Shown: positions 53,700 through 59,389 of the stretch, piece after piece | Numbering within the stretch: the first letter of the stretch is position 1 | Layout of the letters: each line of letters opens with the position of its first letter | Assembly: GCA_040005235.1 (NCBI GenBank) | Contig: JBDTZG010000002.1 | Span: 128,001 to 192,000, forward strand | Source: Acidobacteriota bacterium | GTDB taxonomy: Bacteria; Acidobacteriota; Thermoanaerobaculia; Multivoradales; UBA5704 | Length of the DNA: 64,000 nucleotides | Reading direction: 5' to 3' | The notes under the pieces: generated by a model | Told to the model about the DNA's origin: nothing | Seen by the model: only the letters and a program-made list of their open reading frames with translations | Databases searched by the model: none | Position numbers and translations under genes: made by a program

Positions 53700-53769
53700 C
53701 CGGGGACCGCTTCGCAGGAGCCGAGACGCACTTCGCGGCTTCCCGCAAGCGCCTCCCCGCTTCGCAAAC

Positions 53770-53895
53770 CCGGTGGGCAGGCGCCGGAAAGCGGCGGGCA
53801 GGTGCCGGAAACCGCCGGGCAGGCGCCGAAACCCGGTGGGCAGGTGCCGGAAACCGCCGGGCAGGCGCCGGAATCCGGTGGGCAGGAAGCGGAGA
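53770..53895. repeat. 21-bp tandem repeat, 6 units, inside a longer degenerate repeat tract (about 53700-54230)
   Basis: Unit ccggtgggcaggYgccggaaa and variants; flanks carry repeated accgcttcgca / tgcgaagcggt. Confidence 0.88.
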
Positions 53896-54350
53896 GTGCT
53901 GTGCGGCAACCCAAACCCACCGGATCGGGTCCGAGCACCGCTTCGCAAGGTGCCGGAAGCGGCGGATGGGCGCCGAGCACCGGTTTGCGCCCGCCGCGAA
54001 GCGCTTCTAGGGACCGGGCCACCGGTGCGCTGACGCGATCCACCGGTCTCCGCTTCCCACCCGCCGCTCTTGGGCAGCCGCGAAGCGGTCACGGGTCTTC
54101 ACCCACCGCTTCTGGGAACCTGCGAAGCGGTGTTCGGACTCGGCCCACCACTTTGGGGAACCTGCGAAGCGGTCTCCGGGCTCGGTCTACCACCTGGGTG
54201 AAACTGCCCACCGGAGCCGGAAAGTGAACCCCAAGCGGCGGGCGTATCCCGAGATCTCGCTCGACCTCGAAGCGTTCTGGGGAAAGGTGGAGCGGCGGCT
54301 GGGGTAAGAAACCGTTGGCAGGGGGAGATGCGGCGCCGCCCGGACAATCC

Positions 54351-55802
54351 TCAACCGATCGGATCGTGAGGGCGGCGCGCCAAGTCGCGGGCGGCTTGCC
54401 GGGCAAGGGCGGCGGTGGCGGTTTCTTGGACCGCCGCGGCGAGGAACAGCTTGAGCGACACGTGCGCTTCGCGGTGGAGCTGTTCGCTCTCGAAGGTCTT
54501 GCGCATCTCGAAGACCATCGAGCGGACTTCCGCCCCCCGCCCCTCGCCCAAAAGGAGCGCCGCTTCGTCCAGACCCACGAGCGCCGCGTCGAGATGGAGA
54601 TTGAGATCCGCGAAAGCTTTTCGCACGTCGGGATAGCGGGCCAGCGCCTCGGCCGTCCTGCCGCTCGCGGCACAGATCCAGGCTTCCAGCCAATCAACGC
54701 GGAGGCGGTCCAAGTCGTTGCCCAGCTCCCCGGCCAGGGAGCGGATCTCGGGCAGCAGCGTCTCGGCCTCCGCGGGCCGGTCGAGGTGGAGCAGGTTGGT
54801 GGCGAGGTTGAACCGGAGAACGCAGCGCGGGCGCAAGTCCCCTATGGCTTCGATCAGGGGCGCGGCTTCGCGCAGGGTGGCGACCGCCGCTTCAGGGTCA
54901 CCCTTCTGCGCAAGAGTCGTCGCGCGATTGATGAGCAAGCGGCCGCGGAGCGGTCCTTCCCCTTCAAGCGCCTGGGCGCGATCATGGCGTTCGAACGCAG
55001 CAGAAAATCGGCGTTGATCCCGCGACAGTGAGGCCTCGCGATCGAGAACGCGGACTTCCGACAGCAGGCCCGGATCGTCGGCCGCGCCGCGGTCGAACCG
55101 CCCACGGGCGCGGCGCAGGGTGATCTCGGCGCCGTGGGGCTGGTTGGCCACACGGATCGCGTTGGCGAGGAAAACGCCCGCGTAGCCGCAAACACGCTCT
55201 CGCCAGCCCTCGCCACCGGGAACTTGCTCCGCCAGCTGAACCGCGAGCCGTGCCAGGTCGAGCGCCTCGCATGCAGTGGCGCTCGCCTTGACCTCGCTGA
55301 GGTGACAAAGGATCTCCACGAGAGCCCACGCGTGGAACGAGGGGAGGGTTTCGACCAGCAGGCGCCGTTCCTCGGCCGACCGGGGCTCGAGGCGCTTCCA
55401 GAGCGCGAGCGCCGGAAGTCGATCTTCCGCTCGCGGCCCGGCGGGTTCGGCGGTTCCGCCCCCCAGGCCGGAAAGGGCGGGCACCATGGCGGCGGCGGCG
55501 CGGCGCCCGGCTTCCGATCCGAGGGTCGGCCCGAGATCCGGCCCGATACCCGGCCCGCCGTCCCCCTGGGCTAGCTCGCGATCGGCCTGGACCACGCTTT
55601 CCAAGAAGCTCAACGAGCGGCGGGCGGCCGCTGCGATCCGTTCGAGCTGTGGGCGCTCCGGGGTTACCTCGCCCCGTTCGTAGTCCGAAATCTGGCTGGC
55701 GTGCATCCCTGCGCGCTCGGCCAGCTCGCCCTGGTTGAGGTTGGCGAGCGCCCGGGCGACCCTCACGATCGCCGACTCGACCGCCTGGCTCTTTTCAGCC
55801 AT
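54351..55802 (-). CDS. XRE-family HTH plus TPR regulator (paralogue A)
   Basis: LNQGELAERAGMHASQISDYERG HTH followed by a helical TPR-like region; GGGGAGG RBS before ATG 55802. Confidence 0.88.
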   Translation of the reverse strand: MAEKSQAVESAIVRVARALANLNQGELAERAGMHASQISDYERGEVTPERPQLERIAAAARRSLSFLESVVQADRELAQGDGGPGIGPDLGPTLGSEAGRRAAAAMVPALSGLGGGTAEPAGPRAEDRLPALALWKRLEPRSAEERRLLVETLPSFHAWALVEILCHLSEVKASATACEALDLARLAVQLAEQVPGGEGWRERVCGYAGVFLANAIRVANQPHGAEITLRRARGRFDRGAADDPGLLSEVRVLDREASLSRDQRRFSAAFERHDRAQALEGEGPLRGRLLINRATTLAQKGDPEAAVATLREAAPLIEAIGDLRPRCVLRFNLATNLLHLDRPAEAETLLPEIRSLAGELGNDLDRLRVDWLEAWICAASGRTAEALARYPDVRKAFADLNLHLDAALVGLDEAALLLGEGRGAEVRSMVFEMRKTFESEQLHREAHVSLKLFLAAAVQETATAALARQAARDLARRPHDPIG

Positions 55803-55857
55803 CGTCAGCCTCCCCGAACCGCCGGCCGATGCCGCATGATCCCCAGGGCGACAAAGT

Positions 55858-55877
55858 TCGGCGAATCCCTTCGCCGA
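55858..55877. promoter_or_regulatory. Perfect palindrome in divergent intergenic region, candidate operator
   Basis: tcggcgaa-tccc-ttcgccga between the HTH-TPR gene and the peptide gene. Confidence 0.5.
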
Positions 55878-55931
55878 GCCTCGCGCGGGCCGGACGAACC
55901 GGCCCCGCCATACGCGCCCGGGAGAATCCTC

Positions 55932-56219
55932 ATGGCTCGCTTCAAGGTCTTCGTACCCCTCGTTCTCATCCTGCTGCTCATCGTACCCGCGGCGGCCTCG
56001 GCCGCCACCCTCTCCCGCGGTTCCGGCGAGGGCTGGTCCACCTGGATGCGTTCGATCTGGGCTGCGATCGGCTGTACTATTGATCCTAGCGGTTCTTGCG
56101 CACAAGAGCCAAGATCCAACATCGGCTGCGGCATCGATCCGGGCGGGCACTGCGGCGGCGCGCCCGCCCCGGCGGAGATCGGCTGCATTCTCGATCCGGG
56201 TGGGCGCTGCCGCGGTTGA
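55932..56219 (+). CDS. Secreted peptide precursor with three IGCxxDPxGxC repeats
   Basis: GGAG RBS; MARFKVFVPLVLILLLIVPAAASA signal peptide; cores IGCTIDPSGSC, IGCGIDPGGHC, IGCILDPGGRC. Confidence 0.85.
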   Translation: MARFKVFVPLVLILLLIVPAAASAATLSRGSGEGWSTWMRSIWAAIGCTIDPSGSCAQEPRSNIGCGIDPGGHCGGAPAPAEIGCILDPGGRCRG

Positions 56220-56255
56220 GACCTGGGCCTTCGACCGAATCAGGTTGGGAAAGTG

Positions 56256-56323
56256 GTAGGGGCGGAGCTCGCCTCCGCCCGAGATCTGCGGCAACCGCGG
56301 TCGGAGGCAAGCTCCGCCCCTAC
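56256..56323. repeat. GTAG-type REP doublet
   Basis: gtaggggcggagctcgcctccg...cggaggcaagctccgcccctac inverted pair with GTAG ends. Confidence 0.8.
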
Positions 56324-56343
56324 GACAACCCAGGCCGCGATCG

Positions 56344-57777
56344 TCAACTTTTCAGGCGGGAACGGCCCCATGCACGAGCCGCCTCTCGGGCGAGCGCCGC
56401 GGTCGCCGATTCGTGCTCCGCCGCTTCGAGGAAAAGCCGAACCGAAGCCAGCTCTTCACCTTCGAGCCCGTGCGCTGAAAACAAGGGGACCAGGTCGGCT
56501 GCCAGCCGTTTGACCCGGCCGTGGCGGCCGGCTTCGAGATGGAGGGCGGCGGCTTCCAGTCCGGCGAGCGCCGCATCCGCGCCTTGGTCCAAGCGATCGA
56601 ATTCGCCGATCAAGCTTTCGTACGCAACGATCGCCTCCCCGCTGCGTCCGGACGCTTCGGCAATCCGGCCTTCCAACCAACGCAAGCGTAGGCGGTCGAG
56701 GGCTCCGCCGAGCTGAACCGCCAGCGTGCGGACCTGGGGAAGAAGCGCTCGGGCATCCTCCACCCGTCCGAGGCCCAGATAGCTGACCACGAGGTTGAAA
56801 CGGAGGACCAGCCGTTCCCGTTGCGTCTCGGCCCGATCGACCGATGGAAGCGCCTCGATCATGTCCGAGAGCGCGGCCTCGCCCTTCCCCATGACTTCCA
56901 ACGTGGCTGCCCGATTGAGCAGCAGCCGGCCGCGCAGCTCCTTTCGCCCCTCCGCCAGCGCCCGGTCCTGCAGCGCCAGCGCCTTCGCAAACTCCCTCTG
57001 GTCGCGCCAGAACGAGGCTTCGCGGTCCAGCAAACGCACCGGATCGAGCAGGCCGGGATCCTCCTCCGCGCCGCGGGGGAACAGGTCGTTCGACCGGGCG
57101 AGAGCCTTCCGGGAGCGCTCGAAGTCATTCGCCACCCGGCAGGCGCTGCTCAGGTAGGCCCAGGCGTACCCTTCCACCCGCGCGCGCCAACCTTCACTGC
57201 CGGGAACGCGCTCGGCCACCCAGAGCGCCAGCTCGGCAAGCAGGACCGATTCCTGGGCGGAATCGCTGGCCTTGTCTTCGCTCTCGTGGCTCAGCCGCTC
57301 CACCAGCGCCCAGCTCCAGACCTCCGGGCCGTTTTCGACCACGAAGCGGCGCTCTGCCGTGCTCTTGCCGGCGAGCCGGCGCCAGAGCGCTGCGGCTTCC
57401 GCGCGCTCCTCCTCCGCGTGCCGCAGCCGGGTTTGCCCGGTCAGATGCGCTCGCAGCTCGGCCGCCCCGGCGGCGACCGCTTCGTCGATTCTCCTTCGTT
57501 CCTCAGGAGTGGGCTCGATGGGGCCGGCTTCGGTGTCGCCCGGCGCGATCACCGCCACGAACGCCAGGGCGGCGGCGAACGCCCCGTAAGGAGCGTTCAT
57601 CAGAGCGGCAAAAAAGTCCAAACGCTCCCGGGTCAGGCGGGTGTCGCCCGACTCGATCTCCGACATCGCGCTTCGCGACAGGCCGGCCGCCCGACCGAGC
57701 TGCTCCTGGCCCCAGCCCAAGGCGATGCGCAGAAGCTTTAGCGCGAGGTGAAGCGGGAGGCCGCAATGGGTAGGCAT
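56344..57777 (-). CDS. XRE-family HTH plus TPR regulator (paralogue B)
   Basis: WGQEQLGRAAGLSRSAMSEIESG HTH; co-linear similarity to paralogue A (WALVE, VPG.EGWR.RV.GYA, DPGLL, LDREAS, VLRFNL). Confidence 0.88.
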   Translation of the reverse strand: MPTHCGLPLHLALKLLRIALGWGQEQLGRAAGLSRSAMSEIESGDTRLTRERLDFFAALMNAPYGAFAAALAFVAVIAPGDTEAGPIEPTPEERRRIDEAVAAGAAELRAHLTGQTRLRHAEEERAEAAALWRRLAGKSTAERRFVVENGPEVWSWALVERLSHESEDKASDSAQESVLLAELALWVAERVPGSEGWRARVEGYAWAYLSSACRVANDFERSRKALARSNDLFPRGAEEDPGLLDPVRLLDREASFWRDQREFAKALALQDRALAEGRKELRGRLLLNRAATLEVMGKGEAALSDMIEALPSVDRAETQRERLVLRFNLVVSYLGLGRVEDARALLPQVRTLAVQLGGALDRLRLRWLEGRIAEASGRSGEAIVAYESLIGEFDRLDQGADAALAGLEAAALHLEAGRHGRVKRLAADLVPLFSAHGLEGEELASVRLFLEAAEHESATAALAREAARAWGRSRLKS

Positions 57778-57816
57778 GGGTTCATCTCTTCACTATAGGT
57801 AGGCATGGGTTTCATC
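57769..57816. promoter_or_regulatory. Direct repeat over the start of HTH-TPR B, candidate operator
   Basis: ggtaggcatgggttcatc (57769-86) and ggtaggcatgggtttcatc (57798-816). Confidence 0.5.
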
Positions 57817-57987
57817 GGCTCCACTAAAGGAGTAAGTTGCCGCAACCCCCTATTTGGAGGACAAGAAAGATCGAATTCCGGGAATCCGATACCGGGACGC
57901 CGAACTTTGTCGCCTCTGCGCCTGTTCTGCATCAGAAGTTGAATGGATCGTAAAAAAATTGGAGCGAGGGCGGTTACCGTTCCCTGC

Positions 57988-58434
57988 ATGGACACGCCAT
58001 CACCGCTCGGGCGGCTTGTTGGGCCACTTGGGCCCGAGAGGCTCGCGGATGCGCCGAAATCGGTGCCGGTGCATTCGCCCCATTTCCGGCTGGCGTGGCG
58101 CTCGATGGAGCTTGCCGAGCGCGCGGCCCGAATGGGGGAGCTGGCCCGAGCCGAGGAAGCGTTCCTCATCGCCGCCCATGGTTTCGGCCTTTCCGGGCTG
58201 CCTTGGCTCGAAGGGTTGGCGACGCTCGCGCTCGCCGCGGTCTACCGGCTCGAAGGCTTCGAGCTGCCGGACTGGATCGTCGATCGGCCGAGGGTTCTCG
58301 GCGTCGCGCCCGATGTCGTAGAGCTGCTGCTCGACATCCTGCTCTTGATCGACATCACCCCGCCGGATTCGCAGTTTTTGTGGGAATTGCTCGCGGACGT
58401 GAGCGCCCACCGGATGGGCTTGGAGCGCTCATGA
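57988..58434 (+). CDS. Hypothetical helical/TPR-like protein
   Basis: AARMGELARAEEAF...LATLALAAVY; first of three stop/start-overlapping ORFs; start uncertain (57943 or 57988). Confidence 0.55.
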   Translation: MDTPSPLGRLVGPLGPERLADAPKSVPVHSPHFRLAWRSMELAERAARMGELARAEEAFLIAAHGFGLSGLPWLEGLATLALAAVYRLEGFELPDWIVDRPRVLGVAPDVVELLLDILLLIDITPPDSQFLWELLADVSAHRMGLERS

Positions 58435-58922
58435 CGGTCCGCAAGGACTCCGCGCATCTGACGTTTCCCCAGGATGCCCAACAGGTCTTCGCCCGTGCGG
58501 AGGCGGCGCGTGACCAAGGTCGACTGGAAGATGCCGCAAGGCTTTTTGGGCGCTCCGCGACAACCTGGGGCACTGAAGGCAGGGTGTTTCAAGCCATCGA
58601 CGCATACCTTGAGCTGGGGGCCATTCTTCTCCTCCAGGGCAGAGGAACTCTGCTTCCCGACCTCGCCGAAAGGCTGCTCGAACTGTCGAAGCAGAACCCG
58701 CTGCCGCCGGGCACTTACGCGAAGCTTCAGATCTTCGCGGTTCTGATGAGAAAGGCCGTCGAGATTGAGGGAGCGTACTTCAGCCTCGTTCACGAACAGC
58801 GCCGCCACCGGAAGGCGGTACGGGACTTTGAAGAGGCAAAGCCTGAGGCGCCCGATCACCGAGAGGCTCTTGGCGAACCCTCGTCGTCTTGGACGCCTGC
58901 CACCCGAAGGAGTTGCCCGTGA
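58431..58922 (+). CDS. Hypothetical TPR-like protein resembling the C-terminus of the HTH-TPR regulators
   Basis: ATGA overlap; QGRLEDAARLF...AIDAYLELGAILLLQGR. Confidence 0.6.
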   Translation: MTVRKDSAHLTFPQDAQQVFARAEAARDQGRLEDAARLFGRSATTWGTEGRVFQAIDAYLELGAILLLQGRGTLLPDLAERLLELSKQNPLPPGTYAKLQIFAVLMRKAVEIEGAYFSLVHEQRRHRKAVRDFEEAKPEAPDHREALGEPSSSWTPATRRSCP

Positions 58923-59389
58923 AGCTAGAAGTCACCAAATTCCACCTGGTCCTTGAACTGGACCTGGTACGAGGGAACTGCCGCTGGCGCGAGCTGGCGC
59001 CTTTTCGCGAAGCGGTGTTGTCCCACTTTGCCGATGCGGAGCTTCGCGCTCACCTTGCTCTCCTGGGCGAGGCCCTGGCCGAACACCTGCTGGAGTTCGA
59101 GCAAGAAGCGGTAAGCCCCGGGGAGCCCTGGCCGAAGGTGCAGCTCCGAGCTTTGACGGTGGATCTTCGCCACTCCTGGGAAGGGCTCCAAGAGGTCGTT
59201 TCAACCGCCGAAGGGGATGACTCCCTCGCGGATCGACAGCAGTTGATTCAGATTTCCAAGGAGTTGATCCGAGGTCTTGACCGAGATCTCTCGAAAGTGG
59301 AGAGCTTCCTCGGTTCGATTCCAAAGCCCCGACCTCCGAAGAAGGGGCGCGGAAAATCTCTTGGGAAGGAATCCAAAGGAAGGCCCTGA
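58919..59389 (+). CDS. Hypothetical helical protein with basic C-terminal tail
   Basis: GTGA overlap, GAAGGAG RBS. Confidence 0.55.
   Translation: MKLEVTKFHLVLELDLVRGNCRWRELAPFREAVLSHFADAELRAHLALLGEALAEHLLEFEQEAVSPGEPWPKVQLRALTVDLRHSWEGLQEVVSTAEGDDSLADRQQLIQISKELIRGLDRDLSKVESFLGSIPKPRPPKKGRGKSLGKESKGRP

Follow-up and report, generated by a model that had tools for sequence, protein, structure and literature searches.

What might a gene for a small, apparently exported protein be doing between two paralogous regulators in a diderm bacterium? We examined this question at a locus within a 64,000-nt stretch of DNA from the host genome under study, G000 (the window, G000:C8:128001-192000; coordinates given without a contig are positions in this window). 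The locus consists of a short gene for a precursor protein with three core motifs, flanked by two genes, regA and regB, whose products join a helix-turn-helix (HTH) domain to a long tetratricopeptide-repeat (TPR) region. In our judgement it is about an even proposition that the locus is an independently evolved peptide-receptor cassette resembling the RRNPP systems, lineage-specific and heavily multiplied. We favour this reading because the adjacency of regulator and peptide gene is near-absolute in four genomes of four genera, because the peptide partner persists when both the output domain and the gene order are swapped, and because the conserved peptide unit is C-terminal and variable in copy number, with no other linked function.

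The locus and its paralogues

The original prediction for this DNA described two HTH-TPR paralogues around a 95-aa gene with three cores, and open reading frames (ORFs), Pfam matches and alignment all confirm that description. Both regulator genes lie on the minus strand and encode an XRE-type HTH followed by TPRs: regA (54351..55802) specifies 483 aa from an ATG at 55800-55802 with GGAGG ahead of it, and regB (56344..57777) specifies 477 aa. The two proteins are 48% identical over 328 aa (E = 3e-77). HTH_3/HTH_31 match the N-terminus of each above the Pfam cut-off, HTH_3 covering residues 15-66 of regA, while TPR_12 is over the cut-off in regA and slightly under it in regB (25.2 vs 30.1 bits). 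Between them on the plus strand lies the precursor gene (55932..56219), which encodes 95 aa from an ATG at 55932 with the ribosome-binding site GGGAGA upstream. It is divergent from regA across a 129-bp intergenic region (55803..55931) that forms a shared control region, and convergent with regB across a gap of 124 bp.

The precursor protein begins MARFKVFVPLVLILLLIVPAAASA, followed by ATL..., and its basic and hydrophobic N-terminus (aa 1-24) ends in A-S-A. The signal peptide and its A-x-A cleavage site were read by eye at this locus, and a hydrophobicity filter was used for ORFs genome-wide. A Trp-rich segment (W35, W38 and W43) is located before the cores IGCTIDPSGSC (56067..56099), IGCGIDPGGHC (56121..56153) and IGCILDPGGRC (56178..56210), all on the plus strand and all Cys-x7-Cys, and the stop codon follows two residues after the last Cys. 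The Sec-like signal, the Trp-rich spacer and the three IGCxxDPxGxC cores that had been predicted are all present, the first of these on visual judgement. The precursor gene aligns with 20 further copies in G000. Because these copies align and 2423 database representatives match the derived profile, we take it to be a real gene and not a chance ORF.

The locus is not unique. G000 (6.22 Mb in 140 contigs, 66% G+C, scored 100% complete) holds dozens of such cassettes, about 25-40, of which this is one. When all six frames were scanned for the core motif, multi-core ORFs with Cys brackets turned up on nine contigs, and tblastn with regA and regB located regulator paralogues directly adjoining each of them. 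A regulator profile retrieved 46 ORFs at E < 1e-20, 40 of which have a small DPxG ORF no more than 1 kb away (25/25 of the HTH type and 15/21 of a non-HTH type described below). All 19 full-length HTH regulators of the genome lie within 125 bp of a peptide gene, 14 in convergent and 5 in divergent orientation. Approached from the peptide side, 13 of the 17 signal-peptide-like small ORFs with at least two ΦDPxG motifs stand beside a regulator.

A profile built from the peptides finds additional signal-bearing small ORFs beside distant regulators; these are Cys-free and carry the repeats IGLEADPSGRP, EGISIDPLGRP and AGIQIDGNG. Since many paralogues without cysteines keep Φ-D-P-x-G, the Cys bracket is not the defining feature of the family. 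The conserved unit is Φ-D-P-x-G, and Cys-x7-Cys a trait of one subfamily. The Cys-x7-Cys loop noted at first thus gives way to a motif that is invariant where the cysteines are not.

Among the 21 precursor paralogues of G000, W43, G47 and G84 are at least 90% conserved. The close orthologues of the window's precursor carry 3, 4, 5, 4 and 3 cores. Three strict cores are found in 85 of 148 short precursor representatives and four in another 45; 138 of them have at least one Cys-x7-Cys core, and the G, C, D, P, G and C of the core are almost fixed. The residue that follows the core Gly is often basic, and it is R in 223 of 478 cores. Measured in 145 relatives, the distance from the end of the last unit to the C-terminus is at most 4 residues in 92 and at most 6 residues in 132.

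Twin full-length regulators were a second element of the original prediction. They are present at this locus, but the arrangement is limited to one clade. In the tree, the five divergent full-length regulators, regA included, form a single clade together with their convergent partners. Outside that clade, the divergent slot is held by a form of about 250 aa with the HTH and the first half of the helical domain only (6 genes). Such half-length regulators were seen at L012, L013, L014, L017 and L018 (contigs C8, C10, C59, C111 and C124), and C124 has two copies in one frame. Full-length divergent regulators are thus a feature of a single clade, and the universal partner in HTH-type cassettes is therefore the convergent regulator, regB at this locus.

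The host is a diderm, as had been proposed, and a soil member of Acidobacteriota: its genome gives six matches to the Omp85 family, and the closest named records are metagenome-assembled genomes labelled Holophagales bacterium and Thermoanaerobaculia bacterium. That DPxG peptides occur together with these regulators had been offered as one check on the idea, and it holds strongly within the genome, across genera and across sister families. Seven distinct loci fetched by similarity to regB alone all contain a multi-core peptide gene (7/7). In three near-complete genomes from three other genera, the peptide and regulator profiles were searched separately and their coordinates then compared. All 40 peptide-profile matches fell within 686 bp of a regulator match, and 1-3% of each of these genomes lies that near one.

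Of 31 relatives, 28 contain the regulator family, and each genome of the same taxonomic family has between 16 and more than 52 matches. The peptide profile matches all 61 genomes and all 11 genera of that family, with 1-40 matches each and about 900 in total. At E <= 1e-5 it gave no match in 300 other genomes across the phylum, with 15 candidates per genome scored; because of that sampling, this search missed divergent single-unit precursors, which do occur in sister families. Against 1.84 billion cluster representatives, the peptide profile matched 2423 proteins with E <= 1e-3, of which 626 reached E <= 1e-10. None of the 21 precursor paralogues was recognised by a Pfam or NCBIfam model, and the nearest ESM Atlas clusters to the precursor are acidobacterial proteins without names (scores 0.88-0.89), which serve as leads only. 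The sequencing runs containing the stretch are four DNA runs from one study, two of which may have supplied the DNA itself, with no RNA run listed.

Sensor fold and output modules

The AlphaFold2 model of regB (mean predicted local distance difference test score 89.5) begins with the HTH, from which a long helix (91-135) leads to about eight helical hairpins. Foldseek matches listed for it include LGN, Rap, NprR, PlcR and MalT, and peptide-binding TPRs are among the closest. Neither a transmembrane segment nor a signal peptide was seen in the regulator paralogues, including the stretch between HTH and TPR, and on these features the regulator is cytoplasmic. A transmembrane helix at residues 60-80 of regB, which would have made the TPR region periplasmic, was considered and rejected: the segment aligns with an amphipathic helix in the paralogues, most of which are not hydrophobic there, and the AlphaFold2 model has it as a helix continuing from the HTH domain. 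A complex prediction of regB 120-477 with peptide 27-95 scored 0.01 against a mark of 0.32, which speaks neither for nor against an interaction.

The sensor module is found with more than one output. Distant regulator paralogues have no XRE HTH and carry an N-terminal H-x3/4-C-x2-C motif instead. At one locus of G000 (L024, G000:C103:11000-18000), two of these Cys-motif TPR genes begin at the stop codons of genes for extracytoplasmic function (ECF) sigma factors (Sigma70_r2/r4). The order there is sigma and Cys-motif TPR, then sigma, peptide, sigma and Cys-motif TPR, the precursor being of the DGNG-repeat type. The whole set, with three genes for ECF sigma factors, two for Cys-motif TPR proteins and one for the DGNG-repeat precursor, takes up 5 kb.

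The same theme recurs beyond the taxonomic family of the host. In four genomes from four sister families of the same order, none of the 70 regulator matches listed covers the HTH part of the profile. Twelve regulator-centred loci were fetched from these families with flanks of 1.5 kb only, and 8 of them hold a signal-bearing ORF of 90-107 aa with a Trp-rich helix and one ΦDPxG unit. For comparison, a similar ORF filter gave 91 ORFs across the 6.2 Mb of G000, or about 0.06 per 4 kb. At 6 of the 12 loci, no more than three residues separate the ΦDPxG unit from the stop. One of the sister-family loci (L049) is an operon of precursor, ECF sigma and TPR protein, in which the stop of the sigma gene and the start of the TPR gene overlap. 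The TPR module therefore retains its peptide neighbour when the XRE HTH is replaced and the gene order is changed.

The Cys-motif N-terminal domain may behave like an anti-sigma factor for the adjacent ECF sigma. The resemblance is to the pairs formed by ECF sigma factors and zinc-binding anti-sigma (ZAS) factors, and it lies in the two pairs of L024 and in L049, where the TPR protein begins at or overlaps the ECF sigma stop, and in the N-terminal H-x3/4-C-x2-C motif of the TPR protein. Unlike those pairs, the proteins described here have no transmembrane segment, and their sensor would be cytoplasmic and TPR-based. The link to sigma factors is seen at some loci only. An adjacent sigma gene was found for 2 of the 21 non-HTH paralogues in G000, with a sigma hidden Markov model made from three sequences that detected 9 sigma ORFs genome-wide, and there was no sigma gene at L023 or L050. 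The zf-HC2 family (PF13490) matched one of eight non-HTH N-termini, at E = 0.014 and below the cut-off. Passages of the ECF re-classification (PMC7826278) mention TPRs for the extension of ECF42 and for the FecR-like factor of ECF267, and the sigma-TPR arrangement found here differs from the contexts mentioned in them.

Control region and neighbouring genes

The whole 129-bp region between regA and the precursor gene is strongly conserved in three related loci (the window aligned with L011, L003 and L004). The divergent orientation of the two genes and the perfect 8-4-8 palindrome between them, both noted at the outset, are borne out by the DNA itself. The palindrome, TCGGCGAA-TCCC-TTCGCCGA (55858..55877), is a candidate operator for an HTH dimer. 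By itself it is only modestly unusual, because 173 of 5000 shuffles of the intergenic region contain an inverted repeat of its quality and the window-wide rate predicts 0.07 per 129 bp. It is mostly kept in the three related loci; in one of them the arms measure 6 bases and the spacer 5.

A second candidate promoter or operator element is CATGAT (55835..55840, plus strand), 97 nt upstream of the precursor ATG. This hexamer occurs at -86 to -121 from the peptide start in 7 of 14 HTH-type cassettes of G000, where 1.8% per locus would be expected, a comparison to be read with the fact that the element was picked by eye, post hoc, from the same data and that the 14 loci are paralogous. In two of the seven cassettes it is doubled as TCATGA-N-TCATGA. 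Several other cassettes of the genome have AT-rich palindromes such as ACCCAAAATTTTGGGT at a comparable distance from the peptide start. A sigma-70 promoter scan of 55700-58000 returned no promoter-like site, and terminator-like sites in the same interval were no commoner than in shuffles.

A small operon divergent from regB follows on the plus strand. Its first gene, W (57943..58434), encodes 163 aa without a Pfam family, and tblastn finds copies of it beside three other cassettes. Gene X (58431..58922; 163 aa), whose start overlaps the stop of W, encodes a TPR-like module of 120 aa with TPR hits that are sub-threshold only. Of its 15 copies in G000, 13 have a regulator in divergent orientation no more than 1 kb away, and it is present beside regB orthologues in two sister genomes. 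Gene Y (58889..59389; about 166 aa, start codon uncertain), which belongs to no family, follows X in five cassettes. We considered gene X as a universal fourth component and rejected this, as X was not found in the three other genera (G355, G014 and G009); for the same reason it is regarded as a genus-level accessory. W, X and Y are genus-level accessory genes that extend the cassette to 59389, and X could be a target, a partner or an anti-regulator.

Other flanking genes in the window encode a PilT-like ATPase, RecX, an NfeD-like protein and flotillin. Two tandem-repeat arrays lie between recX and the 3' end of regA, one at 53766-53886 with periods of 21, 42 and 63 bp and up to 5.6 copies of the 21-bp unit, and one at 54080-54207 with three copies of a 42-bp period. 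Both arrays give rise to long spurious ORFs on both strands. An all-against-all comparison of the 4-kb flanks of 14 cassettes found no common enzyme, maturase, protease, ABC exporter, transporter or immunity gene, and the flanks in the window hold no maturase, protease or exporter beside the precursor. G000 has a single match to SBP_bac_5, the Opp/Dpp-type peptide-binding protein family, at G000:C8:64502-65602. This lone gene lies about 4 kb from another cassette (C8:57949-60791).

Interpretation and relation to known systems

If the locus is a peptide-receptor cassette, the precursor would be exported by Sec, its signal peptide removed, and the remainder cut into short DPxG peptides, with each unit bracketed by two Cys in the present subfamily. 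The peptides would then re-enter the cytoplasm, where each would bind to its cognate TPR domain on the concave face. Binding would alter the output module, which at this locus would be the XRE HTH, operating on the promoter region common to both genes with its palindrome (55858-77) and CATGAT (55835-40), and in distant paralogues and sister families the Cys-motif domain acting in an anti-sigma-like manner on the adjacent ECF sigma. regB would serve as the universal receptor, its TPR superhelix as the input module, and the precursor would supply one to five Φ-D-P-x-G units. regA would be a clade-specific duplicate with a promoter region in common with the peptide gene, and its action may support or oppose that of regB.

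Several points weigh against a peptide-receptor cassette. The envelope is diderm, and a Sec-exported peptide lands in the periplasm with no evident route across the outer membrane; the signal could even be private to the periplasm. We infer the release and processing of the peptide, its crossing of the outer membrane, its re-import and binding, and the sign of the regulation. The three test genomes have 116 regulator matches in all, of which 56 have a peptide match within 1 kb and 60 do not; the regulators without such a neighbour may have divergent partners or none. The most conserved parts of the precursors, the scaffold (W43, G47 and D-P-x-G) and the Trp-rich helix, do not look like an obvious specificity code, and the three cores in the window differ at the putative 'specificity' position (T, G and I). 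When cores are compared in pairs, the residue following the first Cys agrees in 52% of pairs taken from one precursor vs 9% of pairs taken from different precursors. This likeness could reflect selection for a precursor-specific flavour, or it could simply stem from recent tandem duplication.

The relationship of the receptor to RRNPP proteins is a further difficulty. In the fold search, eukaryotic LGN scores as high as Rap, and APC/C subunits and IFIT proteins score as high or almost so. Because eukaryotic TPR proteins score like Rap, the fold match permits a peptide-receptor role and is not specific for one. As RRNPP proteins do not rank above eukaryotic TPR proteins, the fold does not serve to claim membership of RRNPP, and among TPR proteins likeness of structure does not by itself establish a common origin. 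Only generic TPR and HTH proteins, and no RRNPP protein, appear among the best 60 of 158 PDB sequence-profile matches (E <= 1), and Pfam assigns the regulators to generic HTH and TPR families only, with no RRNPP family. Since no sequence-level relationship to RRNPP proteins was detected, the system is better regarded as an analogue than as a member of that family. The RRNPP-like reading of the original prediction survives as analogous architecture, but not as a tie detectable by Pfam or by PDB profile.

The version of this reading with disulfide-cyclised peptides faces an objection of its own, as no DsbB or VKOR match was found in G000, complete as it is scored. For this reason enzymatic disulfide formation is unsupported, and the earlier suggestion of possibly disulfide-cyclised peptides is weakened. 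The exported mini-proteins carry strictly paired cysteines though the genome shows no match to either enzyme.

Finally, two proteins of 731 and 783 aa (P0021 and P0089) carry about 30 xDPNG[RK] units, so that the motif also occurs as a long, structural-looking repeat. Both proteins bear a signal, have no Pfam domain, and begin with an N-terminal domain, which the DPNG array follows ahead of a C-terminal region with VDEWDGEV(V/L)KR repeats. They may represent either a structural use of the DPxG motif or a polyprotein precursor. Such secreted-looking arrays of tandem units would suit a different explanation, namely that the cassette pairs a regulator with its regulated product: the DPxG protein would be an envelope, matrix, adhesive or antimicrobial output, and the TPR region would sense some other cytoplasmic ligand or protein. 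We regard this as unlikely, if deserving of serious weight. The adjacency of the genes and their shared divergent promoter region would fit a regulator and its target equally well, the Trp-rich amphipathic helix conserved across the order could be membrane-active or anchoring, and paired Cys around a D-P-x-G turn would form small stable loops. However, a regulated product leaves unexplained why the peptide type tracks the TPR through changes of output domain and gene order, why each genome has dozens of separately regulated, near-identical copies, and why the unit is placed at the very C-terminal end, in numbers that differ among close orthologues. It also finds no linked immunity or export genes.

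Export could instead be part of the regulation itself. FlgM and ExsE are models for export-coupled partner switching, and by this analogy the unprocessed precursor would bind the TPR inside the cell, Sec export would remove it, and the regulator would report synthesis or export. We think this improbable. Both proteins would begin in the same compartment, which spares a diderm cell the outer-membrane crossing and the re-import, and the cores are no better conserved than the Trp-rich helix. Some TPR proteins, moreover, are chaperones or partners of secreted substrates. However, with a cleavable Sec signal of the classical kind the precursor should be exported quickly and spend little time in the cytoplasm, dozens of cassettes would be superfluous if all of them monitored the same Sec pathway, and the multiple cores and their variation in copy number would be without a role. 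It is highly improbable that the gene encodes a bacteriocin-like or ribosomally synthesised and post-translationally modified peptide (RiPP) precursor, whose cores would be modified or cyclised by unlinked enzymes into an antimicrobial or metal-binding product under the control of the regulators. In its favour, multi-core precursors with conserved flanks and paired Cys are typical of some RiPP classes, and the family diversifies within a restricted lineage. Against it, the flanks of the 14 cassettes have no maturase, protease, ABC exporter or immunity gene in common and those in the window hold none, every precursor is headed by a Sec signal peptide and not by a leader recognised by a maturase, and many paralogues lack cysteine altogether.

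We return, then, to the peptide-receptor cassette and its relation to known systems. Passages of the paper describing RRNPP_Detector (PMC10075063) give the simplest RRNPP system as a two-gene unit of receptor and adjacent propeptide, and describe these systems as belonging to Firmicutes and their mobile elements. The cassettes resemble NprR/NprX, PlcR/PapR and Rap/Phr in their cytoplasmic receptor of similar size, with an N-terminal XRE-type HTH and a C-terminal TPR superhelix, and in the adjacent small gene for a Sec-exported propeptide whose conserved unit is C-terminal; as with Rap-Phr, there are many paralogous cassettes per genome. They differ in that no sequence homology was detected here and in that the host is a diderm acidobacterium and not one of the Firmicutes of those passages. 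The precursors are also longer (80-130 aa), with a conserved Trp-rich helix and up to five tandem cores that are often Cys-bracketed, the sensor module is in other cases connected to a Cys-motif domain and an ECF sigma, and the gene order is convergent instead of co-directional.

Signalling precursors with several copies of the signal are familiar from duplicated Phr peptides and from yeast alpha-factor. Like these, each exported precursor here holds several near-identical units, 3 to 5 and varying among relatives; unlike them, the units of one subfamily are Cys-bracketed. Antagonistic paired receptors are known from Rgg2 and Rgg3 with their SHP peptides, and the two paralogous HTH receptors beside one peptide gene at the present locus may likewise answer the same peptide. 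A difference is that in other clades the second regulator is the 250-aa form, without the C-terminal TPR half.

Full-text literature searches, with supplementary tables (ECF groups and RRNPP candidates) outside their scope, found no description of the system. That it is undescribed, as had been proposed, is supported by the fact that we found neither a Pfam or NCBIfam model nor a paper describing it. What is new here are the parts, the phylum and the link to ECF sigma factors; the signalling logic is already known. More broadly, and with somewhat less than even confidence, we suggest an order-wide peptide language of independent origin in diderm Acidobacteriota, in which Sec-exported precursors would release Φ-D-P-x-G peptides, either C-terminal or tandem, to be read by cytoplasmic TPR sensors. 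What is apparently the commoner form of output would run through an ECF sigma, with a soluble TPR protein as its anti-sigma factor, and that of one family directly to DNA through an XRE HTH, with 20-60 channels per genome.

Even if the DPxG proteins are regulated products, they constitute a large, unannotated and lineage-defining gene set, with 2423 cluster representatives and no Pfam or NCBIfam model. If the cassettes are signalling systems, their significance would be wider. Peptide pheromones that are genetically encoded and read by TPR receptors in the cytoplasm have been treated as a hallmark of Gram-positive Bacillota and their phages. The cassettes would then be the first RRNPP-type system outside monoderms and a case of convergent evolution, in which the RRNPP style of signalling logic arose from unrelated parts in abundant soil Acidobacteriota, and one would have to ask by what route short peptides get out through a diderm envelope and back in. 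The ECF wiring would add a new type of input to the largest family of bacterial alternative sigma factors and would provide the first peptide-gated cytoplasmic anti-sigma factor. The defined peptides, receptors and promoter regions would, in addition, offer a handle on cell-cell or envelope-state signalling in an ecologically dominant and barely tractable phylum.

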